A DNA stretch of 64,000 nt from assembly GCA_031835245.2 (NCBI GenBank), contig JAVKOQ020000054.1, positions 1-64,000 of the forward strand, read 5' to 3'. The translations under genes were made by a program, and so were the position numbers. The notes under the pieces are model-generated. The model did no database searches. It had not been told where the DNA came from and worked only from the letters and a program-made list of their open reading frames with translations. This DNA comes from Balamuthia mandrillaris. Taxonomy: Eukaryota. Of this stretch, positions 1 through 62,915 are shown piece by piece (within the stretch, counting starts at the first letter, position 1; every line of letters starts with the position of its first letter).

Positions 1-234
1 TGTTGGTAAAATCACCAACACTTATCTCAAGACTCCTCATGTTGGATCCGTCCCGGACCCTCAGCTCTCCTTTCTTTTGTATCCCCCATCCTTCCTTTCT
101 CCCTTTTCCCCTTTCTCTCGTGTACTTTGAAGCAACGTCGGAGATTCACTCTCGTTGTCCTTCCTCTATTCTCTTGAATACACTCCTTGTCTCGTCACCG
201 ACTCTTTCCTTCCTAAGGTTGGATTCAACCAACA
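1..234 (+). repeat. 5' LTR
   Basis: Appears identical by eye to 4949-5177 over 229 nt. Starts TGTTGGT and ends TTCAACCAACA, followed by T8. Confidence 0.93.
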
Positions 235-286
235 TTTTTTTTGACTTACATAAGTGATTCAAATCCCCTCTTGCGCTACGCACATC

Positions 287-3200
287 ATGGAAGCCACAGC
301 CGCTCTCGACACCCTCCGTGAACAGCTTCGCAAGGCACAACAGGAGTACCTCCACATGCTCCAACAATCTTTTCAACTTGAGCTCGACATCCCCAGCTGT
401 CCCGAGACTGAACGCGTCGCCAAAGAAGAAGAACAGCGCAAGTTAGACGAAGTCGCAGAACACACTAGAAAGGCCATGGAACGGTTACAACAACGTATAG
501 ACAGCTTTGCTATTTTCCTCGCATCCACCTCGGCCACACTAGGCAATTCTTCCACATGCAACACTTCCGCTGCCGCTGTTTCTCCTCCCTCGCCCGTTCC
601 ACAGATCTCTCCCATACAGTCACCTCGTTCGAGTTCACCCTCTCCCGTTGACGTTTCCGTCAACAACACAACTGCTTCCAACAGCACACACGTTGCCTCT
701 GTCCCAGAAACACAGAACAACACAACTACTCCTTCCCCTCCTACTCAGAAGAAAATGCCTCGCCTTCCCCCCGGACTACCTAAGTTCGACGTCAGCAAGC
801 GCCAGGACCCCGCTCTTCACACCATGGAACTGGAGTATCACCTCAACGCCTACAACTACCCTGAGGATAGATGGACGCAAGCCCTCATCACCACCCTTGT
901 TGGAGACGGACGTCTTTGGGCCATTAGCGCTCTACGAGACCAACCATGGAACGTCGCCCGAGACCTCTTCCATCGGCACTACCACCTTCCAGACATCGAG
1001 GCCACAACGATTGAGGCCGTCACGTCGTTTCGACAGAAGCCTGGCGAAAGCGTTCATCAACTCATCGATCGGTATTCTGTACTCTGTAATCGTCTTCCTG
1101 ACACCTTCTACGACTACCTCAAAGCCTTCTTCTTTGGACGAGCCCTTCTTCCCCACATCAAGTCGAAGTACAAGCAACAGACTCTTCGCAACAAGCCACA
1201 AGACGTCATCGCTGCTTTCGAGCTCGCAGTCCTCATAGAAGCAGAGTTTCCACAACCTTCTTCGAAAGATAAAGGTCACAGCAAATCACCTCAAAGGCAA
1301 TCACAGTTACCCCACACTATCGGTGCTGTTTGCGCACACTGCAAAACACGCAACCACACGGAAGATCAGTGCCAAAAAAAGGCCCGCAAGCTACAACGGC
1401 AGTCTTCTCCAGCTACGTCTGCTACACCAGCCTTATCTTCTGCTCCCACAACACGCAACCCCACGTCAACACTGCCGCAACAAACACGCGCGCAACTACC
1501 AGCACGCCAGTCCTCTCCCAGCTCACGTTCCCTCAACTCCATGTCTTCTACGCAACAACAGAGCAACACACCCGCTCCTGCCGCTGAGCAGCAAGACTCT
1601 ATCGGAGATGAAGAGGAGTACGACGAGTTCTATGAGTCACAACGGGCTCTCAACTCTATCACCGTCACTGACGATATGCCTGGACCCAACGACCCTATCT
1701 GTGCCCCGATGACCATCAACGGCCGTCGAGTCACCGCTGTCATAGATTCTGGCGCCAGCCACTCCTTTATGGACCCTTCCATTGTTGACTTAGTTCGTGC
1801 CAAAACCAAGCAAGCCAACTACATGGTCAAACTCGGACACCGTGAAACCACCGCTACATGTGCCGCCGAAACGGAGCCACTCGCTATTGGCTTCGGCGAA
1901 TGCTGTTTCCATCACATGTTCTCCGTGTTGCCTCAACCAGATGGTCAATCGATCATCCTGGGCCGCGACTTCATGCGCAAGTCCGGCATGGGCATTACAG
2001 ACATCCCAATCGACTACCCTGAGGAACCACTACCTCGCTCCAAGGACCACGACATCACCCGACGCCAACATCAACGTTTGGTGAAAGCTGTCAAGGAACA
2101 CATCCGCAAGCGTATTCTCGAAGCCATCGAGAAATACCTCCAGGAGAATGAGGCTCTACCGACAGGACCTTCCTGTACCCTCCCCGAAGCGGTTCTCCAT
2201 CTGGACACTGGAGACCACCCTCCTGTCTTTCGCCACCAATACCCCATCCCACACCATTTAATGCTCGTTATCGATCTGCAAGTGGCGGAATGGCTGCGTA
2301 CCGGCGTCATCGTGCTCGCCCCACCCGACAGTCCCTGGAACTCTCCTCTCACCGTCGTACCCAAGAAGGACGCTGACGGCAACGTCACCCAGTGGCGTGT
2401 CTGCATCGATCCGCGCCTTCTGAACAAGCTCCTTTTGGACCTCACATACCCAATCCCTACTATCCGCAGCATCATCTCCAAAGTGCAAGGCTTTTTCATC
2501 GCCTCCGCCCTCGACCTTATCTGGTCTTACACACAATGCCCCATTGCTCCTGAAGACTGCGTCAAAACTACATTCACATGGAACGGTCGTCGTTACATGT
2601 TCGTCGCCGCCATTTTTGGCATCAAAATCGTTGCACAGCACTTCCAGCGCCTCATGGACGTTGTCACTGCCGCTATTGCCGAGTTCACTTCCCATTACAT
2701 CGATGATCTCGCTGTCGTTTCCCAAAGTGTGGAAGAACATATCGAGCACCTTATCCGCGTTATCCTCACTCTCACCGCCGCGGGACTCCGTATCCGTCGG
2801 GAGAAGTGTCAGTTCGGGTACAAACGCCTCTGCATCCTCGGTTTTATCATCGACTGCAGCAACATCCTTCCCGACCAACGCAAGCTCTCCACCTTCGCAC
2901 TTCTCGAAGTACCTTCCACCAGCAAACAAATGCAATCCTTCCTTGGCTTTGCAGGCTACCTTCGCGACTTCATTCCCATGTTCGCCCAACTCGTTCGGCC
3001 CCTTGACACCCTCCGGTACATCAAGGATGTCCGTCCCCATTGGAACCAAGACTGCCAGGACGCCTTTGACGCCCTCACACACATCTTATCCAACCCACCT
3101 GTGCTCTCACTCTATGACCCATCCTTACCTCTTTTGGTTGGCACCGATGCCTCCCAATTCGGTGTTGGCGCTGTCCTTTACCAGATCGGACCCAACAACA

Positions 3201-4937
3201 AGCACTGGTACATCGCGTTCGTGAGCAAGGCTCTCAACCCTGCCCAACGCAACTATCCTGCCACCAAACGAGAGATGCTCGTCATCCTCTTCGCCGTCCG
3301 CTCCTTCAGCGATTGGCTCTATGGCAACAAGTTCATGATCTTTTCTGATCACAAGGCTTTGTCCTACCTCTTCACTTCTAACAGTAAAAAACTACACCCT
3401 CAACTATTGGGCTCTCCTCATCTCCGAGTACAACTTCGAGATCGTCCACCGCCCTGGCGTTCACATGATCCTTGAGGACTGTCTCTCTCGGCTGTACCCG
3501 CGCTCCTTCTGGGACAACGGTGGTCTTACACCTCCCTCCATCCCTCTTGACGCCCCTCGCTTGGCTCAGCACAAACCCCGCGACCTCAAGGCTCTCGCCT
3601 TGGTTGACAACTCCCCATCCACAGCCAAATCCGCTCTTAACAGGCACATCAAGGGCAGACTCAGCAAACAACTCCCTTCCACCTCCAAACGGAAACACCT
3701 CCTGCAGCTGTTCCACACAGAAGGACATCACGGAGCAGAAACCTTGTTCGTCAAGATCTGGAATGAAGGCTATTACTGGCCTACTCTTCGTGCTGACTGT
3801 TCCCGCACTTGCCTACAATGCAATGACTGCCTTAAGCACAACGTCACCAAACACGGCTTTCATTCCCTCAAAACCATCCACGCCACTTACCCCTTCGATC
3901 ACGTCGCCATCGATCTGTTTGGCCCACTTCCCACTTCTTCCAAAGGCTTCAACTACGTTCTGGTCACCACAGACATCGCTACCGGTTCCACTTCCCTCCG
4001 CCCAATCCACGCCAAGACTGCTAAAGACGTGGCCCGCACCCTGTATCAAGTCGTCTCTGATTTCGGTCTCCCTAAGATCCTTCAGTCAGACAACGGCACT
4101 GAGTTCGTCAACGCGATCATCAAAGCTCTCAAGACACTCTCTGGCTTTGAGCACCGGTTCATCTTGGCCTATCATCCTCGAGCCAACGGAGCTGCAGAAA
4201 GCCATGTCAAGCTGGCCCGCAACACCCTTAACAAGCTCATTAACAGTGATTGGTCTCACTGGCACACCTTTCTTCCTGCTGCCCAATACGCAATCAACCA
4301 ACGCGTCACCCATCGTCACAAGTCTTCCCCTTTCCAACTGTTCTTTGGTCGCCCAGCTACCACTCCACAAGACTATTCTTCTTCCTCCTCCCAGCTTCCT
4401 ACCGAAACTCTCCTCTTGGAGAATGCCAAGCAAATGCATGATATTGTCTACCCGGCATCAGCATCTTCTACCCGGAAGCACAGCTCCAACATCAAGGCTC
4501 AACATGATTCCTCTAAGCCACTCCGCGAATTTTCCACTGGTTCCAAAGTCATGCTACGCAAGCCTCCCAGGTCTCCCAAGTCTCTTCCTGAGTACTCTGG
4601 CCCCTACACAGTTATCCGCCGCAATCGTGGTGGTGCATATCTCCTCCAGGACAGCACCAGTGTTACCCTCCCAGACAAATTCAGCCCCAACCAGCTGAAG
4701 CTCGTTGCCCCCCCAGAGGACTCGACTACTAATGAACTCCTGCCAGATGAGTACGAAATAGATGAAATCCTTGATCACAAAGGCCCAGCCAATAAGCGTG
4801 AATACTTTGTTCACTGGAAAGGCTACCCACATTCTGACAACCAATGGATCCCTGCTAAAGATGTTCATGCTCCCAAACTCGTCAAACGTTATTGGGATCT
4901 CCTCAAACAATCTTCTTCACCTTCCACTTCTTCTTAA
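287..4937 (+). CDS. Gag-Pol polyprotein, single ORF broken by a +1 frameshift at ~3375-3392
   Basis: Gag zinc knuckle CAHCKTRNHTEDQC; protease AVIDSGASHSF; RT YIDD; RNase H TDAS...SDHKAL continuing in another frame as YWALLISEYNFEIVHRPG; integrase HHCC, D-D-E (IDLFG, SDNGTEF, NGAAES) and GPY; chromodomain EYEIDEILDHK...YFVHWKGY. Confidence 0.95.
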
Positions 4938-4948
4938 GAGGGGGAGTA

Positions 4949-5178
4949 TGTTGGTAAAATCACCAACACTTATCTCAAGACTCCTCATGTTGGATCCGTC
5001 CCGGACCCTCAGCTCTCCTTTCTTTTGTATCCCCCATCCTTCCTTTCTCCCTTTTCCCCTTTCTCTCGTGTACTTTGAAGCAACGTCGGAGATTCACTCT
5101 CGTTGTCCTTCCTCTATTCTCTTGAATACACTCCTTGTCTCGTCACCGACTCTTTCCTTCCTAAGGTTGGATTCAACA
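4949..5178 (+). repeat. 3' LTR
   Basis: Follows the polypurine tract plus TA; ends GGATTCAACA. Confidence 0.93.
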
Positions 5179-5713: not shown

Positions 5714-7132
5714 CGCACAGGTTTATTGTGGCAGCAGCAACATTCATAGTCTAAACAATAATTGTTATAATTGGTCTTGGTTCATTTGTTCTTCTTTTGA
5801 CATTCACTCACACTTTGTTTTTTGTCTCTTTCTTTCTCTCTCTTTCCCTCTTTTTTTCTTTATTTTTTTCTCTTTTTCTTCTTTTACACTGCTTCTTTAG
5901 GTGGTTCATGAAATTAACAGATTAACCTACCAAAGATCAACAACAACAATTTTATTGCTCCTTATGACTTGAATGTTGTACAACTTGGGTAGAAAATCAT
6001 CCAAATGAGTTTGATAAGAATGTGTTAGCTGAAGTTGCAGCAACTTTTCAGGCCAAAAACAAATCTTCTCTTCATTGATTGAATATTCATCATCAGCTTT
6101 GCCGTCAACACATCTCTGGCATTCTGCAAAGCTTTTTCAGTGGCTTGAATGAGCTGGTGGATGAGTTTGTAGCTCCTGTACTTCCCAAGTTGGTCAACGG
6201 ATCACCCATTCACAAAGCATTCCTCACCCCTCGTCAAGAGCAATCATCCTCTTCCCTTTGTTGACGGGGGATAAACCCTGCGGATCAAGAAAGGGATGGC
6301 ACGTAAGCGACTCTGGGTTTATTCACAAGAAAAGAGGTGTGGACCAAAGTGTGTGCTTTGAGTGTGTCGTGAGGAAAAAGGGAAAATAAAAAGGGGTGAG
6401 AGAATTCGGGGTATCCAGGGAAAGTGTCGACAGGAAGTCATAATGACGCGAATTGTTGGTTTTCCAACACCTTGCTTCTCTCGATGATGACAATGACAAG
6501 AGTCGTGACTCAAAAAAACAAACACCACAACGACAACGACTTCGCAGAGCGCTTCAGCGACAACAATTGTTATCCAGTCGACTCAAATATCGAAAGAATG
6601 GCCATTGGCAACGGATCGCTTGGCAGGCACCAGAAATCCGTAGACTTGTCACTTGGTGCTTGCGTGATGAATGGTCTTGGTTGTAGATTGCCAAACACTT
6701 GCCTACCCAACATCAAACCAACAATGATTGCTATGATAAATGGCGCAATCTCCTCACAGAATTCTCCAACAATCTGGGCGCTTTGAAGGCCAAATACTTG
6801 GTGGCCCACGATGAGGACTTTGACAAATCGGATGATGATGATGATAATGACAACACTTGCTTCCCATCATCATCTCCTACTTCTACTACCACTACAGTTA
6901 TATCCATCTTGGATGAAGAGGAAGAGACAAAGGAGAATGATGATGATGATGATGATGATGATATTATGATTATATCTTGTTAAATTATATAGGTATTCCT
7001 ATACAAAAATTGAAAAAATTGCTACTTTGACCCACTTTATCCGTTAGACTTATAGACTTAGAGTTTTATAGAATGGACCATGGGGAGTTGAATGCCGTAG
7101 GTTCTGAGTACCCGCCCCTAACCCTAACCAAG
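5714..7132 (+). mobile_element. Repeat unit copy A: intron-containing Myb/telobox-like pseudogene ending in (CCCTAA)2CC
   Basis: Aligns to 7779-8979. In-frame stops plus a solo-LTR insertion; encodes ...NDCYDKWRNL and an acidic tail. Confidence 0.7.
6259..6469 (-). mobile_element. Solo LTR (211 bp) of a related family
   Basis: Absent from copy B; TG...CA ends; 4-bp CCTT target duplication at 6255-6258 and 6470-6473. The minus strand starts TGTTGGAAAACCAACA, contains AATAAA and ends TCAACA. Confidence 0.9.
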
Positions 7133-7778: not shown

Positions 7779-8979
7779 CGCACAGGTTTATTGTGACAGT
7801 AGCAACATTCATAGTCTAAATAATAATTGTTATAATTGGTCTTAGTTCATTTGTTCTTCTTTTGACATTCACTCACACTTTGTTTTTTGTCTCTTTTCTC
7901 ATTTTCTTTCTTTTCCTCTTTCTTTCTCTCGCTTTCTCTTTCTCTCTTCTTCTTTTACACTGCTTCTTTAGGTGGTTCATGAAACGAACAGATTTGCCAA
8001 CCAAAGATCAACAAATACGATTTTATCGCTCCTTGTGGCTTGAATGTTGTACTGCTTGGGTAGAAAATCATCCAGATGAGTTTGATAAGGATGTGCTAGC
8101 TGAAGCTGCAGCCACCTATGAGGCCAAAAACAAATCTCCTCTTTGTTGGCCCAATATTCATCGCCAGCTGTGCTGTCAACACATCTCTGGCATTCTGCAA
8201 AGCTTTTTCAGTGGCTTGAATGAGCTGGTGGATGAGTTTGTAGCTCCTGTACTTCCCAAGTTGGTCAACGGATCACCCATTCACAAAGCATTCCTCACCC
8301 CTCGTCAAGAGCAATCATCCTCCTCCCTTGCTTCTCTCGATGATGATGATGACAAGAGTCCTGACTCAAAAAAACAAACACCACGACGACAACGAGTTCG
8401 CAGAGTGCTTCAGCGACAACAATTGTTATCCAGTCGACTCAAATATCGAAAGAATGGCCATCGGCAACGGATCGCTTGGCAGGCACCAGAAATCCGTAGA
8501 CTTGTCACTTGGCGCTTGCGTGATGGATGGTCTTGGTTGGAGATTGCCACACACTTACCTACCCAACATCGAACCAACAATGATTGCTAAGATAAATGAT
8601 GCAATCTCCTTACAGAATTCTTCAACAATCTGGATGCTTTGAAGGCTAAATACTTGGTGGCCCACGATAAGGATTTTGACAAATCAGATGATAATGATAA
8701 TGACAATACTTCCTCTCCATCATCATCTCCTATTTCTACTATCACTACCGTTATATCCATCTTGGATGAAGAGAAAGAGACAAAGGAGAATGATGATGAT
8801 GATGATGATATAATGATTATATTTTATTAGATTATATAAGTATTCCTATACAAAAATTGAAAAAATTGCTACTTAGACCCACTTTATCTATTAGACTTAT
8901 AGACTTAGAGTTTTATAGAATGAACCATGGGGAATTGAATGCTGTAGGTTCTGAGTACCCGCACCTAACCCTAACCAAG
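7779..8979 (+). mobile_element. Repeat unit copy B: Myb/telobox-like pseudogene flanked by CCCTAA motifs
   Basis: ORF reads RQRIAWQAPEIRRLVTWRLRDGWSWLEIATHLPTQHRTNNDC then stops. CCCTAACCCTAACC at 7766-7779 and CCTAACCCTAACC at 8964-8976. Confidence 0.7.
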
Positions 8980-9752
8980 GGCTGGCTGCCGTGGCGTTGG
9001 AGCTGCTGGGCTACAGCACGGACCAGAGCTTCTCCGTGATAAGCCTGGGCAACGCCATTCCAAGCCACAGTGCGGAGCCCAACAGCTTTGGCATTCGGTG
9101 GATCCAAGTTACCTACTTCTTGTTCGTTTTCGTGGTGCCGCTCCTTCACTTGGTCACTTAGTTGACGTTGTGGCTGCTGCCCCTCCGTCCTATCTTCCAA
9201 CGACTCTTGTTTCTCGTGTCGGAAGTGCTGAATGCCTGGTCCTCTCTGGAGGTCTTTATCGTCTCCATCGTCGCCGCGCTGCTCCAGATAGACCAGTTTG
9301 CTGAATTCATTGTTGGAGACAAGTGCGAAGCCATCGACGACATTGTGGAACAGTACCTCAAGAACTTCTTACACGGCGAGCCAGCGACTTGCTTCTCCGT
9401 CGTGGCAACGTTGCAGTGGGGATGCTGGCTCCTCTTCATAGCATGCTTGGTCTACCAGCTTGCCGCCTTCTTGGTGATGCGTCTCTGCCACAAGATCATG
9501 GAAGAACGAGAGCATCAGGCCTTTCGTGCTTCTCTCAACTCGCACACCGCAGCTTCCTCTTCCTCATCTTCTGGTTCTGCTTCTCCCTCCTCTTGGCCCC
9601 TTTCCTCACTGCAGGGCGGAAATGAAGAAGAGACGTTGCAACAGACGAAAGCTATTTTGGACGAGATGAAGGACAGCCGCTGCGGGCCTGCCATTCGTTA
9701 TGTTTGCTTGTTGCTGCGTTTGGTGAGGGAAGAAGAAAAAGAGGTAGACTGA
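8976..9752 (+). pseudogene. 5'-truncated PqiA-like (paraquat-inducible protein A domain) membrane protein
   Basis: Frame runs from the repeat junction (GLAAVALELL...) with an in-frame TAG at 9159-9161; motif AWSSLEVFIVSIVAALLQI; no start codon. Confidence 0.6.
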
Positions 9753-9785
9753 GTCGATTGATATTTCTATTGTTTTAAAACAGAG

Positions 9786-9945
9786 CTGTAGACATCAAAA
9801 TAACATCACCAACTAGCATACTTTTGCGGATGGATCAAAAACCATAGCACTAAACCATCGTCCGCCCACGGCACCCCGCAACATCCCTGTCGGCTCCATT
9901 GGGCAACGCTACACAACAAGACGCCGCAGGAGAATGTTGCGCGCT
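9786..9945 (-). ncRNA. Putative omegaRNA scaffold / right end of a Fanzor2-type element
   Basis: Directly downstream of and overlapping the TnpB-like stop. Stems CGCAACATTCTCCTG/CAGGGATGTTGCG and GCGGA...TCCGC; TGATGT direct repeats 11 bp apart before CTACAG. Confidence 0.55.
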
Positions 9946-10180
9946 CCATTTACATCTCGATCCAGTCGTGTCCCACAGTCCCTATGTTCACACTCAAAGA
10001 TCCGGTTTCGTTGGTTGGTTAGCTTTTGTTCGTGGGTCACACGAAGCCACCGAGCACAGGTTTGCTTGTCCAAGCCTCTGAGCGTACATAGACCTTTGCC
10101 CTTCCCTGGCCTTATGCATCAATCATTGGCGGAATCGAAAGTGAGCCCAGGAAAAACATCCTGGCTGGTTGCTTGCTGTT
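9909..10180 (-). pseudogene. Decayed Fanzor2/TnpB nuclease C-terminus (zinc finger and RuvC-III)
   Basis: Manual minus-strand translation across frameshifts: SWAHFRFRQ*LMHKARE / VYVRSEAWTS / TCARW...RIFECEHRDCGTRLDRDVNGARNILLRRLVV*. Confidence 0.88.
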
Positions 10181-10504
10181 CTAATAGAAGTCAGCAGCCA
10201 ACTTGTTCAAGCAAAAACACATTCCCTCTCTTTCTCGCACAAAAGGAAGACAGAACAAAAGGAGAAAGCGGAGCAAAAAAAAAAGATCTCAGCCAGGTGA
10301 TGGATAACAATTAGTTAGGAAAAAAGAGAGGAAGTATCGCAATTCACAACTTTTCCGTAATGGTACTGCCAATCAAAAAGCGACACGTGCGCAGCAAATA
10401 AATGATTTCGAGCACTAATTGTAACTGCTGCCTTTGTTTCGACCCTCTTTTTGGTCGTCTTTTATACTGGACAGAGTAAGAACAACAAGAATAATAACAC
10501 ACCA

Positions 10505-11221
10505 ATGTCTGCCACAAGGAACAACGTTTGTGGTAGCTGCCTTAGTTGGACCAGTCTGGTCTTGCTCTTCGTCTCCTTGGTCATTCCTTGGTACCTCATC
10601 ACCACACACATTGAGAACATCGACACTGGCTTGGTGTGCACAGCGACAAATGTTACCTTTTGGGCTCATTCTGTGTGCGCCTCTCAGGGAGATTGCGATC
10701 ATGAACAAGTCTGTGGAGAGGAGGATGTTCACGCCTTCTGGGGAGAGAAAGACAATCACTTGGGAACAGTCTTCGCTCCGACCTTCTTCCTAATGCTGCT
10801 CACCACCATCATCGCGTTGTTGGCTGCTCTGATATTCTCCGCTCGCTGTTGTTGCATGCAAGCATCTTCTCCCCGATCAGCAATGCTCACCAAGGCTGCC
10901 CTCCTCTTAGCCGTTTTGGGCGTGCTGGCGCTCACCATAGCAATCATCATCTTTGCTGCCCTCTTGCCCAACGCTTGGAAGGCCAGTGTGGATGACGAGA
11001 CGGAGGCCGTCAAAGGACCTTGGGACAGCTTCATTGGCCATGATGAACGGGAGTTCAACATACCGGAGGTAATCAGTATTAAAACCAAGTTTGTGTGGGC
11101 TCCAGTGGGGTGGTGGTTTGCCATCCTGGCATGGCCGTTCTTAGTGGGAACCACCATTGCTCTTTTCACTGCTGAACGCTCAGTCCGCACAGAACATGCC
11201 TATTCCATTATCAACCAATGA
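10505..11221 (+). CDS. Four-TM claudin/amastin-like membrane protein, intronless
   Basis: Four hydrophobic segments; Cys-rich first loop after PWY. Confidence 0.7.
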   Translation: MSATRNNVCGSCLSWTSLVLLFVSLVIPWYLITTHIENIDTGLVCTATNVTFWAHSVCASQGDCDHEQVCGEEDVHAFWGEKDNHLGTVFAPTFFLMLLTTIIALLAALIFSARCCCMQASSPRSAMLTKAALLLAVLGVLALTIAIIIFAALLPNAWKASVDDETEAVKGPWDSFIGHDEREFNIPEVISIKTKFVWAPVGWWFAILAWPFLVGTTIALFTAERSVRTEHAYSIINQ

Positions 11222-46786: not shown

Positions 46787-47020
46787 CGGAATGCCCCTGT
46801 TTTTTTGGTGGTGCGAACAGCTGAACTAGAGACACGTCAAGGAGTCTTGAGGAAATGAAAGGAGAAACCAAAGAGCACGACCCAAGATGAGCACTTTCAA
46901 TGAAGGTTATTCGAGAAGAGAGAAAAGCGAGCCAGAGAAGAGAGCACGAAGCAAGAAGGGGAGCAGGGCTAATAAGTAACTTAATAACCGACAAAGAAGA
47001 AGAAGAAGAAGAAAGGGCAG

Positions 47021-48719
47021 ATGGCATCAGGGTCAGGCGGTGAGGAAGAAGAGTTTTCAGCAGAGGAGGCAGAGGACAGCAAAACCCTTTCTCCCTTCCT
47101 TCAAGCCGTTACCACCTCCTGCGACCTCTCCAGCAACAGCTTGCCTAAGTTGCCGAGCACATTTGGGCTGCTGACCGCCCTCACCCACTGCGACCTCTCC
47201 TGCAACAAGTTAACGGCCTTGCCCGCCGAGTTTGGCCAGCTCACCGCTCTCACCCATTGCTGCCTCTGGGGTAACCGGTTGAAAGTCTTGCCGGGAGAGT
47301 TTGGGCAGCTGACGGCCCTCACCCGCTGCGACCTCCACGAGAACAAACTGAAGAGCTTGCCCACCGAGTTTGGTCGGCTGACCGCCCTCACCCACCTCAA
47401 CCTCAGCAAAAACTTCGGCCTGAAAGCTTTGCCCTCTGAGTTTGGCCAGCTGACGGCCCTCACCCGTTGCAACCTCTCCAGCAACAAGTTGAGGCGTTTG
47501 CCAAGGGAGTTTGGCCGGCTGACCGCCCTCACCCGTTGCGACCTCTCCCACAACGGCTTGAGGGCCTTGCCACGGGAGTTTGGCCAGCTCTCTTCCTTGC
47601 ACACCCTCGCCCTGGCCTCCAACAATTTGACGGCCTTGCCAGGAGAGCTTGGCCGGCTGACCGCCCTCACCCGTTGCGACCTCAACGAAAACTACAAGTT
47701 TGAGGGCTTTGCCAAAGGAGTTTGGCCAGCTCTCTTCCTTGCACACTCTCGTCCTGGCCTCCAACAAGCTGACGGCCTTGCCGAGAGAATTCGGTCAGCT
47801 CACCTCCCTCACGGATTGCTATCTCTGCTGCACAGATGCTTCCCTCTACCACCGGGAGCTCAATCGCTTGGCTGCACTGCCATCCTCCGCCTTTCAGCTT
47901 CTCCCTTTGTTTAACTCTGACATCTGTTCTCAGCCCTGTGCGAAGAAGGAGACCAAGCAGACCAAGCAGAGAAGAGCAACAAAGGGCAACAGAGGAAATG
48001 GGAGTGTGAAAAGTTTGTGGGATTTGGCTGGAGAGGCGGTGCTGAGAAACCAGCTTTTGCCGACAGGCATGTTGGCCCCTGTTCCTCAATTGCCTTTCAC
48101 TTGGCCTGCTTCTTCTCTGCGCCTAGAACCCGAAAATAAAGTTGAAGACGAAGAAGAAGATTATGAAGACGAAGAAGAAGAAGAAGAAGAAGAAGAAGAA
48201 GAACAAGAAGAAGAAGAAGAAGAAGAAGAAGAACAAGAACAAGAACAAGAACAAGAACAAGAAGAACAAGAAGAACAAGAAGAGGATGAAGAACAAGAAC
48301 AAGAAGTGTACGAAGCAAGCGCTGAAGACGAATTTGAAGAAATAGAAGTAATAGAAGTCGAAGAGGAAAAAGAAGAAGAAGAAGAAGAAGAAGAAGAAGA
48401 AGAAGAACGAGAAGAACAAGAAGGAGAAGGAGAAGAACAGCAACAACAGCAGCAGCAAGTGAAAGCAAAAGACGAAGCAAGTGTGGAGTGGATGGTACTG
48501 CCAGAGGAAGTGACGGAAAGACTGGAAAGGTTGCAGCAACGATGCGATGTGTGTGAATGTCTGTTTTTGGAGACAACGAGAGAAGAGGAGGAAGAAGGAA
48601 GAAGAGGGAGGCTTGTGCGAAGATATTGGGACAAGGAAAGAGAAGTGTGGTGGGAGTTGTTGTGCTGCAGCCAAAGGTGCTTGACTTCGCCTCTTCCTGG
48701 CTCTTTGCTTGAACTTTGA
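47021..48719 (+). CDS. LRR protein copy 1 (~11 LRRs, BC-box-like motif, Cys-rich tail); 1-nt frameshift at ~47700
   Basis: 23-aa LRRs; SLWDLAGEAVL; poly-Glu; RCDVCEC...LLCCSQRCL. AAGTTTGAGG here versus AAGTTGAGG in a sister repeat. Confidence 0.85.
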
Positions 48720-48976
48720 AAGGAATAATTTTCAACATTACGCCCTTTCTTTGAATGGAGAAGAGACCACTCGAAACAAAAGTCTTTTAAAGAAGAAAAC
48801 AAAGAGTACAACCCAAGATTGGTGCTTTGCAAGCCCAACGCCAAGCGTTCTGCTTTTCCTCTCGGCAGACACCAGAAGCAAATGATCCTGGAAGCGAGCA
48901 CGAAGCAAGAAGGGGAACAGGGCTAATTAATAACTTATTGACATAGAAGAAGAACAAGAAGAAGAAGAAAGGGCAG

Positions 48977-50305
48977 ATGGCATCAGGGTCAGGCGGTGAG
49001 GAAGAAGAGTTTTCAGCAGAGGAGGCGGAGGACAGCAAAACCCTTCGCTCCTTCCTCCGAGCCGTTGCCACCTCCTGCGACCTCTCCGCCAGCGAAGAAG
49101 AATTGACCAAGTTGCCGAGCACATTTGGGCAGCTGACCGCCCTCACCGACCTCGACCTCAACGAATGGGACCTGGAAGCCTTGCCCCCAGAAGTTGGGCA
49201 GCTGACGGCCCTCACCCGCTGCGACCTCGGCGGGAACCTATTGAAGAGGTTGCCTGCCGAGTTTGGCCGGCTGACCGCCCTCACCCACCTCGCCCTTAGC
49301 AGCAACCAGCTGAGGAGCTTGCCCCCCGAGTTTGGCCTTCTGTCCGCTCTTTCCTTCTGTGACCTCTCCTACAACAAGCTGACCAGCTTGCCTCCTTCCT
49401 TCGGCCAGCTGACCGCTCTCACGGAGTGCAACCTCTACTACAACAGCTTGAGGGCCTTGCCACGGGAGTTTGGCCAGCTCTCTTCCTTGCACACCCTCGT
49501 CCTGGCCTCCAACAAGCTGAGGGCCTTGCCGAGAGAATTCGGTCAGCTCACCTCCCTCACGGATTGCTATCTCTGCCGCACGGACGTTTCCCTCTACCAC
49601 CGGGAGCCCAATCGCTTGGCTGCGCTGCCCTCCTCCGCCTTTCAGCTTCTCCCTTTGTTTCGCTCCAACCTCCGCTATCAGCCCTGTGCGAAGAAGCAGG
49701 CCAAGCAGAGAGGAGCAACAAAGGGCAACAGGGGAAATGGGAGCGTGAAACGTTTGTGGCATTTGGCTGGAGAGGCGGTGCTGAGAAACCAGCTTTTGCC
49801 GACAGGCATGTTGGCCCCTGTTCCCGACTTGCCCTTCACTTGGCCTGCTTCTTCTCTGCAGGAGAAGGACCAAATAGAACAAGATGAAGATGGAGACGAA
49901 GAAGAAGAAGAAGAAGAAGAAGAAGAAGAAGAAGAAGAAGAAGAAGAAGAAGAAGAAGAAGAAGAAGAAGAAGAAGAAGGAGAAGAACAACAGCAGCAAC
50001 AGCAGCAAGTGGAAGCAAAAGACGAAGCAAATGTGGAGGGGATGGTGCTGCCGGAGGAAGTGAAGGAAAGACTGGAAAGGTTGCAACAACGATGCGACGT
50101 GTGTGAACACCTGTTTTTGGAAGCGGCCCCTGCGCAAGAAGAAATGGAAGAGGAAGCGGTGGAGGAAGAAGGAAGAGGGAGGCTTGTGCGAAGGTATTGG
50201 GACAAGGGAAGAAAAGTGTGGTGGGAGTTGTTGTGTTGCAGCCAAAGGTGCTTGACCAAGCCCCTTCCTGGCTCTTTGCTTGAACGTGGGCAGGAACAGA
50301 AGTAG
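48977..50305 (+). CDS. LRR protein copy 2 (~8 LRRs), intronless
   Basis: Tandem paralogue of copy 1, sharing upstream sequence, N-terminus and C-terminus. Confidence 0.9.
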   Translation: MASGSGGEEEEFSAEEAEDSKTLRSFLRAVATSCDLSASEEELTKLPSTFGQLTALTDLDLNEWDLEALPPEVGQLTALTRCDLGGNLLKRLPAEFGRLTALTHLALSSNQLRSLPPEFGLLSALSFCDLSYNKLTSLPPSFGQLTALTECNLYYNSLRALPREFGQLSSLHTLVLASNKLRALPREFGQLTSLTDCYLCRTDVSLYHREPNRLAALPSSAFQLLPLFRSNLRYQPCAKKQAKQRGATKGNRGNGSVKRLWHLAGEAVLRNQLLPTGMLAPVPDLPFTWPASSLQEKDQIEQDEDGDEEEEEEEEEEEEEEEEEEEEEEEEEEEGEEQQQQQQQVEAKDEANVEGMVLPEEVKERLERLQQRCDVCEHLFLEAAPAQEEMEEEAVEEEGRGRLVRRYWDKGRKVWWELLCCSQRCLTKPLPGSLLERGQEQK

Positions 50306-61420: not shown

Positions 61421-61450
61421 AAAAAATAGTGTTGGAAACGCGAAGAACTT

Positions 61451-62695
61451 CTATTCCGTTCTAAGCTCAATCCAAGAGCCAGGAAGGGGCCGGGCCAAGC
61501 ACCTGTGGCTGCAGCACAACAGCTCCCACCGCACTTGCCTTTTCCTATCCCAAAACCTTCGCACAAGACTCCCTCCTCCTCCCTCCCCCTCTCCTTCTTG
61601 TGCAGGGGCAGCCTCCAAAAACACGCATTCACACACGTCGCATCGTCGCTGCAACCTTTCCAGTCTTTCCTTCACTTCCTCCGGCAGCACCACCACACGT
61701 TGTTGTTCTTCACTTTCTTCTGCCCCTTTGGTTGCTTCTTCCTCCTCCTTCGCTGGTGGCTCGGTTGTGCGCTGCTTCTGGTGGTTCTGCTCCTGCCATG
61801 GATGAGGAGGCAGCCAAGCGAAGGGCAAGGGTGGAACAGGGGCCAACATGCCCACAGGTAAAAGCCGGTCCCTCAGCACCGCCTCTCCGCTCAACTGCCA
61901 CAGACTTTTGGGCATGTGGCTGGCCATGGCTGTCGCCCTCGCTTTCTCCTTCTCTTCTTCCATCCTTTCTTGCCCACAGGGCAGAGAGGAAAGGTCGAGC
62001 CAAGGAAGCAGCTGATAGGAGGAGGTTGGGATGGCCTTCAACTGGTTGTTGGAGAGGTCACAGTCGGTGAGGGCGGTCAGCTTCCCAAACTCTGCGGGCA
62101 AGGCCCTCAACTGATTGTAGGCGAGGTCGCAGTAGGTCAGAGCGGTCAGCCGACCAAACTCGCGGGGCAGGGCTGCCAGTTGGTTGTGCCAGAGCTCGCA
62201 GCGGGTGAGAGCGGTCAGCCGGCCAAACTCAGGGGGCAAGGCCTTCAACTGGTTGCCGGAAAGGTCGAGGTGGGTGAGGGCGCTCAGCTGACAAAGCTCA
62301 GGCGGCACGGCACTCAACATGTTGCAGGAGAGGTTGCAGCGGGTGAGGGCGGTCAGCCGACCGAACTCGCGGGGCAGGGCTTCCAGATTGTTGAAGGAGA
62401 GGTTGCAGTGGGTGAGGGCGGTCAGCCGACCGAACTCGGAGGGCAAGGCCGTCAACTCGTTCTTCGAGAGCTTGCAGTGGGTGAGGGCGGTCAGCCGACC
62501 AAACTCAGCGGGCAAAGCTGCGAGCTGGTTCTTGGAGAGGTTGCAGTGGGTGAGGGCGGTCAGCCGTCCGATCTCACCGGGCAAGAGGGTCAAATCAGCG
62601 CCCGAAAGGCAGCAGGTGGCAGAACGTGCAAAGGGTTGGAGGAGGGCGGGAAGTTCCCCGCCACGCACCATCGCGTCCGCTCCCTCGTGTTCCAT
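61451..62695 (-). CDS. LRR protein copy 3 (~9 LRRs), intronless
   Basis: Same 23-aa LRR, PKSLWQLSGEAVL and RCDVCECVFL...LLCCSHRCL. Confidence 0.9.
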   Translation of the reverse strand: MEHEGADAMVRGGELPALLQPFARSATCCLSGADLTLLPGEIGRLTALTHCNLSKNQLAALPAEFGRLTALTHCKLSKNELTALPSEFGRLTALTHCNLSFNNLEALPREFGRLTALTRCNLSCNMLSAVPPELCQLSALTHLDLSGNQLKALPPEFGRLTALTRCELWHNQLAALPREFGRLTALTYCDLAYNQLRALPAEFGKLTALTDCDLSNNQLKAIPTSSYQLLPWLDLSSLPCGQERMEEEKEKARATAMASHMPKSLWQLSGEAVLRDRLLPVGMLAPVPPLPFAWLPPHPWQEQNHQKQRTTEPPAKEEEEATKGAEESEEQQRVVVLPEEVKERLERLQRRCDVCECVFLEAAPAQEGEGEGGGGSLVRRFWDRKRQVRWELLCCSHRCLARPLPGSWIELRTE

Positions 62696-62915
62696 CTTCC
62701 TTCCTTTAACCTGGGTTAATAATAATATTTGAAGCGCACCTAGTAAAAGCAAAGCACGGCTGATGAACGGCTACATAGCCCGTTCTTTCTTTCTTTTTTT
62801 TTTTGTTTAAGGGGTTGGCATCAAGGAAGGGGGAAGCCAAACCTTCTCTCTCTTTGGTTGGTTTTTGCCGGGGTTAGCGCAGAGGGCAGGGGCGTTACAC
62901 GCAGCGGAGAGGGAT

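Follow-up and report, generated by a model that had tools for sequence, protein, structure and literature searches.

A broken IS607 Fanzor2 gene in Balamuthia mandrillaris probably retains a decaying vestige of its right end and omegaRNA scaffold

Among the described systems, ApmFz2 (ApmFNuc) of Acanthamoeba polyphaga mimivirus is an intact IS607 element from a family with a TnpA resolvase; it has a non-coding region after its ORF, and its scaffold of ~206 nt is conserved in three copies (sections of PMC11832414 and PMC10530073), the available text of PMC10530073 putting the conserved stretch downstream of the ORF at ~200 bases in each of three copies. Loci without a protein are also on record: in Spizellomyces punctatus, 134 “ghost” omegaRNA loci of the Fanzor1 SpuFz1 are strongly conserved, are bounded by both inverted repeats and share a eukaryotic genome with intact nucleases, and their scaffolds work in human cells (passages of PMC10432273). 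In the reRNA of the IS607 TnpB of ISXfa1, a pseudoknot determined experimentally joins an apical loop near the 5′ end to the bases before the guide, and the direct repeats for TnpA lie within a stem-loop (excerpts of 10.1101/2023.08.09.552727). IS607-like elements have moreover been described, as intact and fragmentary copies, in an amoebozoan nuclear genome, that of Acanthamoeba castellanii, a different host from ours (part of PMC3673617).

The locus reported here lies in a 64,000-nt stretch of the B. mandrillaris genome (contig JAVKOQ020000054.1, hereafter the window), on the minus strand, flanked by two host genes of the plus strand, one ending at 9752 and the other starting at 10505. We regard it as very probably the 3′ remnant of a broken IS607 Fanzor2 gene, likely with a vestige of its right end and scaffold, decaying without function. 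It shares with ApmFz2 the late RuvC-II glutamate and the DRDxN motif but is a 5′-truncated pseudogene with neither a conserved terminal region nor a terminal GG. Like the SpuFz1 ghosts, it is a locus without its protein in a genome that encodes intact nucleases; unlike them, it is a single diverged Fanzor2 fragment with a single-copy terminal region, and no left end was found. Its candidate TnpA repeats sit within a stem-loop, as in ISXfa1, whereas its pseudoknot partner is a 4-nt complement, compatible with chance and read from sequence alone. Guide loci without a protein are already described for Fanzor1; the remnant is a decayed copy of a known kind.

The window is eukaryotic in character, with introns, an LTR retrotransposon and low-complexity runs. 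The host gene ending at 9752 encodes a membrane protein whose last coding stretch occupies 9162–9752 on the plus strand (weak PqiA match, PF04403, E 4e-5), and its 3′ UTR would extend into the region of interest; the other host gene (10505–11221, plus strand) encodes a membrane protein with a weak claudin-like match and is divergent from the remnant. Elsewhere in the window, we observed a young LTR retrotransposon of the Ty3/Gypsy type at 1–5177 (protease, RT, RNase H, integrase and chromodomain), with LTRs of 229 bases each that are 100% identical (1–229 and 4949–5177); a tandem duplication of 90–92% identity (5714–7132 and 7779–8979) directly 5′ of the first of these host genes; and, at 46900–50300 and 61450–62770, three related genes with 69-base internal repeats resembling leucine-rich repeats. 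A T-run with CTACAG on the minus strand (9791–9786) resembles a spliceosomal acceptor, and no minus-strand gene was found to use it.

The coding part of the remnant consists of three pieces in three frames. An open fragment of 54 aa (9909–10073, minus strand, homologous from 10064) corresponds to a Fanzor2/TnpB C-terminus with a zinc ribbon and the RuvC-III motif DRDxNGARNI (PF07282, E 5e-8); searched against eight longer candidates, it matched only P0001 and P0002, both at 76% identity and both annotated as B. mandrillaris. Upstream lie, on the same strand, a RuvC-II piece, SEAWTSK, in a second frame (10061–10096; tblastn, 11/12 identical to residues 402–413 of P0001) and, in the third frame, a piece with an internal stop (10078–10155; tblastn and translations), beyond which homology seen by eye is faint, to about 10190. 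The tblastn matches (10155–10078, 10096–10061 and 10064–9912) together span residues ~381–461 of P0001, or ~80 codons; the RuvC-I aspartate and a complete ORF, both present in the family members P0001 and P0003, are absent from the remnant. Nor did we find TnpA, RuvC-I or a left end 5′ of ~10190 on the minus strand, or, by tblastn, a second family copy within the window. What remains carries the marks of Fanzor2, namely the RuvC-II glutamate (in SEAWTSK) just before the zinc finger, the RuvC-III motif DRDVNGARNI and the PF07282 match, and we classify it on these grounds as a 5′-truncated pseudogene of an IS607-Fanzor2 family. An earlier note on this DNA had called the protein ruined and the region the downstream side (omegaRNA and right end) of a dead Fanzor2/TnpB gene; both descriptions stand. 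An assembly error behind the frameshifts was considered for 9991–10345 and set aside, a contig of DNA run X1 having 0 differences there, with the reservation that X1 may be the source sample of the window.

The full-length relatives P0003, P0123 and P0124 combine a resolvase domain with three TnpB domains in which the D-E-D motifs are visible and, judged by these domains and motifs, form an IS607-Fanzor2 family with intact TnpA and Fanzor2, so that the earlier assumption of intact family nucleases in the same species is borne out. The family is multi-copy, with TnpA resolvase, Fanzor2 and intact D-E-D also on other contigs of the species (P0001, P0003, P0122 and P0124); other copies stack on 9870–10054 of the window, where depth in X1 reaches 1370 against about 35 for single-copy sequence (~40 times). 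In P0123, the whole TnpA-Fanzor2 element lies between the RICTOR_M/RasGEF_N_2 and RICTOR_V domains of a single gene model; it probably inserted into a Rictor intron, and gene prediction fused the two. We found no paper treating both Fanzor and Balamuthia, none on Balamuthia IS607 elements among the matches listed, and no mention of the Balamuthia family in the searchable supplementary text of three surveys of Fanzor; the B. mandrillaris IS607-Fanzor2 family thus seems unreported in print.

Turning to RNA structure, the elements named in the earlier note are all where it placed them: a long inverted repeat (9877–9889 with 9927–9941) of 8 perfect bp, an internal loop and 4 bp; GCGGA at 9826–9830 with TCCGC at 9861–9865; and, on the minus strand, TGATGT at 9808–9803 and 9797–9792, 11 apart, followed by CTACAG at 9791–9786. 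Their significance is uneven. A perfect inverted repeat of at least 8 bp occurs in 263/2000 shuffles of 9760–9945 and in 91/344 tiles of the window, and a hexamer repeat at a spacing of 11 in 68/2000 shuffles and 47/344 real tiles, while a GC-rich 5-bp stem within 45 nt turns up in 1013/2000 shuffles. Both the long stem and the paired TGATGT are therefore genuine features of modest significance, and the GCGGA/TCCGC stem (9826–9865, minus strand), with an ensemble probability of at most 0.06 in all six folds, is at chance level. The long stem folds as a 65-nt rod overlapping the end of the ORF (9877–9941, minus strand; outer 8 bp at probability 0.95), the one strong structure of the region. Its z of −4.6 was obtained with hand-picked ends; with free choice of ends, it is equalled in 2/150 whole-region shuffles and in 36/300 shuffles of the GC-rich 100 bases alone. 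The two TGATGT form a GU-rich hairpin (9791–9808, minus strand; predicted probability 0.75–0.95) and may be sites bound by TnpA at the right end of an IS607 element, or else host 3′ UTR.

To place these structures, we used distant Fanzor2 loci, 80 from metagenomes and 4 from viruses, of which 83/84 have a RuvC-III motif; the viral contig searches returned distant Fanzor2 loci only (3, 0 and 1), a search with the family motif gave 6 matches with a RuvC-III motif nearby in 0/6, and BLASTN of 9740–9915 against the 84 loci (L001–L084) gave a best E of 0.13. Pairs that differ in their flanks establish termini such as TAGCGG, GTAGGCG and TCGTCTG. Among the 73 distinct loci with at least 150 bases downstream, 56 have a 5-nt complement of a hairpin loop followed by CG, GG or TG, against a mean of 20.5 and a maximum of 26 in 20 shuffled sets. 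The pseudoknots of ApmFz2 and ISXfa1 agree with this rule, and in both the pseudoknot loop lies ~13–14 bases from the 5′ end of the scaffold (sections of PMC11832414 and of 10.1101/2023.08.09.552727). Applied by analogy to the window, that distance would put the start of the scaffold near 9910 and exclude the 5′ arm of the long stem; the rod is probably specific to the window copy and mostly upstream of the start of the mature scaffold. The conserved core of Fanzor2 scaffolds is instead a small hairpin whose loop pairs with the bases immediately preceding a terminal NG, and the stems highlighted earlier are not that core. Its candidate counterpart in the window is a CCC...GGG hairpin at 9885–9903 (minus strand) with GGAGCC in its loop, proposed as the pseudoknot hairpin by analogy with the relatives; the read-through tails of P0001 and P0003 also imply this motif, and the hairpin is absent from the predicted ensemble of the window copy (probability 0.0).

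The description of the scaffold as “apparently intact” is not supported by this comparison. The stretch 9786–9945 folds with a z of −0.18, 79/200 shuffles being as good, and scaffold-length folds give z values of +0.24 (9910–9781) and −0.84 (9945–9781), while the median of 34 relatives (the 36 of the end profile described below minus 2 without a 5-nt complement) is −2.6, with only 2/34 above −0.5; in addition, the named stems are broken in strain alleles. An alignment of 16 relatives' scaffolds reached 28% with the 3′ ends out of register. No Rfam family reached its gathering score anywhere in the window; the single match in 9600–10300, at E 9.9, was dismissed as chance.

The candidate zone for the right end is 9779–9786 on the minus strand, where two 4-nt loop complements, among others, suggest an end: GAGC/GCTC (GCTC at 9786–9783) then TG, giving 9781, and GTAG/CTAC then AG, giving 9786. 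Two multi-copy paralog contigs that are different sequence variants from separate runs, X5 record 20 (depth 333, 146 loose bases) and X22 record 6 (depth 252, 148 loose bases), both stop 125 bases beyond the small hairpin's first C, the equivalent of 9779; multi-copy contigs tend to stop where copies diverge, and internal variants may also stop them, as in the case of the 77-base multi-copy contigs of X1 and X9. X5 record 19, likewise multi-copy, continues 238 bases past 9889 and fits neither 9780 nor 9845, and the length of the family is not uniform. The TGATGT pair lies 12–28 bases from 9781, and the right end of IS1535 has two motifs at 10–28 (part of PMC6188088). Family length, the 11-bp repeats and the 4-nt pseudoknot partner all point to about 9779–9781, and we give even chances that the window copy reaches its end at ~9780; that the end falls within about 7 nt of 9786 is plausible to the same degree.

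Somewhat below even, we place the possibility that decay went further and the end itself is lost, homology being gone beyond ~9845; 9844–9753 would then be host 3′ UTR or intergenic DNA, and TGATGT and CTACAG would not belong to the transposon. The furthest stretch common to another copy is 9845–9907 (minus strand), in a single-copy paralog (record 18, 7 differences in 63), the only one matching past 9870, and its match stops at 9845, where GC content steps from 0.62 to 0.39; the frequency of spaced hexamer repeats in the window tiles also agrees with this possibility, as does the end profile. That profile was built from 36 of the relatives' ends (41 kept, 5 near-duplicates dropped) and ranked the true end first in 31/36 left-out tests, an optimistic figure for a set picked by the same rule; on the window, it places 9786 15th and 9781 18th of 278, both with negative scores. 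However, the two contigs stopping at the 9779 equivalent speak against such a loss, the relatives' ends are AT-rich as well, and other subfamilies are too diverged for alignment at 80% likeness. Under the reading that the end lies at ~9780, the earlier note, which put it near 9786, had the correct zone, while the exact base is not favoured. Other positions fared no better: 9863 has the best profile score (4.8) but is ~30 bases from the candidate loop, against a minimum of 58 in the relatives, and a paralog match runs on to 9845; 9843, with a 4-nt complement, is near the paralog boundary but has poor profile scores nearby (−13.3 at 9842 and −18.6 at 9845). The sole 5-nt complement obeying the rule in the window ends at 9642, inside the host ORF.

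Copies and alleles were compared by aligning contigs of four DNA runs (X1, X3, X5 and X9, of 22 runs listed) at 80% likeness, a threshold that would miss more distant homology; the allele and paralog variants given here are those among the rows and loose ends listed, and their counts are small. The locus is occupied in X1, X3 and X9, each with different small breaks, and no empty allele was seen in the contigs of these runs (X5 has no cover on 9759–9832 and mixed depths). The X9 allele has a substitution at 9828, in the middle of the GCGGA stem, with no change in the partner among the rows listed, a 1-base loss at 9837, one base inserted at 9775 and an 11-base loss at 9938 that leaves the long stem with only 4 of its original 8 outer pairs; the X3 allele has substitutions at 9776, 9777 and 9885 and an extra base at 10061, the site of the window's frame break. 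In contigs of X1 and X9, 10062–10297 (236 bases) is replaced by 6 bases. X3 also has an insertion of ~83 bases of low complexity at 10193, and a matching loose end exists in the RNA run X19. The window copy is ~10–20% diverged at the DNA level from all other aligned copies (for example, 35 differences in 185 and 7 in 65). Nine paralog letters placed on the fold comprise four that break a pair (at three inner positions), two that keep pairing and three at unpaired positions; pairing is kept by a T-to-C change at 9888 and by a paralog change at 9930, and the ATGTTGCG arm is missing entirely from the loose end of X5 record 19. At this likeness, sharing among copies ends at 9845–9870 with no sharp scaffold boundary, and no paralog aligns over 9759–9844 in X1, X3 or X9, where the locus alone covers it; the conservation boundary at ~9786, a check set beforehand, was consequently not seen.

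The position of the remnant, which starts ~30 bases past a host stop codon, invites the idea that its end has been retained as the 3′ UTR or terminator of the gene ending at 9752. An AAATAA at 9798 on the plus strand is consistent with this, and the neighbouring gene has an AATAAA ~60 bases past its stop, but the canonical AATAAA is absent here and the region tolerates indels and substitutions; we hold such retention to be unlikely.

The earlier note also proposed an orphan guide RNA with a host-derived guide, loaded in trans. If the end is at 9781, the flank serving as guide would be 9761–9780 (minus strand), which is antisense to the bases immediately past the host stop codon. Even with an end at ~9780, the guide first proposed probably carries 5 surplus bases at its 5′ end; it presupposes the end at 9786, and it is polymorphic, being altered in two of the three occupied DNA runs (X3 at 9776 and 9777, X9 by the insertion at 9775). 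It has 0 exact matches in viral contigs and one match within the window, itself; the predicted matches at empty alleles or in viruses were therefore not found among the occupied runs and exact viral searches. On transcription, 0 raw RNA reads fall on 9759–9860 in X18, X19 and X20 (3–5% of each, from standard RNA-seq, which loses short RNAs), a result made uninformative by totals over the whole 1.5 kb of only 16, 36 and 6 reads, respectively, mostly from other copies. In X19, a few reads with X3-type letters cover 10014–10268 (depth up to 8, mostly first-mate plus) and weakly hint at minus-strand RNA near the promoter of the next gene, if the library is stranded, or at DNA carry-over.

We consider it very unlikely that the remnant is a working ghost omegaRNA, transcribed and loaded in trans on an intact family Fanzor2, with its guide in the flank near 9780. 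The details this would entail, a right end complete to 9781 and a divergent transcript started at the promoter of the 10505 gene, are just as doubtful, and equally so a guide antisense to the 3′ flank of the host membrane-protein gene. The idea draws on the intact nucleases of B. mandrillaris, which make loading in trans possible in principle, although nothing in the analysis shows it; on the X19 reads upstream, if they are minus-strand; on the perfect GAGC/GCTC complement with TG after it, a dinucleotide with which some relatives also end; and on the precedent of SpuFz1 in human cells (text available from PMC10432273). Against it, this is a single old copy, as opposed to the many conserved S. 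punctatus loci of the same source; the fold is weak, the candidate loop being mostly paired elsewhere (unpaired 0.09–0.35; relatives' median 0.51, with a wide range); a 4-nt complement ending at 9775–9790 arises in 85/300 shuffles; the would-be seed differs in X3 and X9; and target matches are wanting, as described above.

Neutral decay is the simplest reading: TnpA and most of the nuclease are lost, no left end was found, and breaks accumulate in the stems and would-be seed. An element would have inserted between the two host genes and later lost its 5′ three quarters (TnpA, RuvC-I and the left end), and the remnant would now be drifting, present in all strains where the locus was seen. While the element lived, TnpA would have shifted it from one short matching core to another, and Fanzor2, carrying an RNA made of scaffold plus flank, would have cut the empty site, keeping or spreading the element. 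The scaffold would have started near the stop codon (~9910), with a pseudoknot between the loop of the 9885–9903 hairpin and the last bases before the terminal NG, repeats for TnpA binding at 10–28 bp from its terminus, and a guide directed at the empty site and formed by the adjoining ~20 bases of flank. Several observations count against decay: all three occupied runs still have the 3′ part, even as the 5′ part wears away; of 150 whole-region shuffles, 148 fall short of the 65-nt rod; where family length predicts the end lie repeats, a hairpin at the terminus and a pseudoknot partner of 4 nt; and there are the changes preserving pairing at 9888 and 9930, beyond which further compensating changes may exist outside the small set of variants listed, as well as the X19 reads, possibly from the minus strand.

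Were the remnant after all loaded as a guide, a nuclear Fanzor2 would join Fanzor1 in having ghost omegaRNAs, and the host flank would offer a testable target. The rule of a loop complement before a terminal CG, GG or TG, drawn from loci L002–L083, is useful for annotating omegaRNAs. As a decayed copy, the remnant itself is of little weight, and its main use is as a pointer to the multi-copy IS607-Fanzor2 family of B. mandrillaris. The intact family is a better target than the remnant, as a candidate source of compact RNA-guided nucleases and as a eukaryotic setting in which IS607 transposition could be tested.
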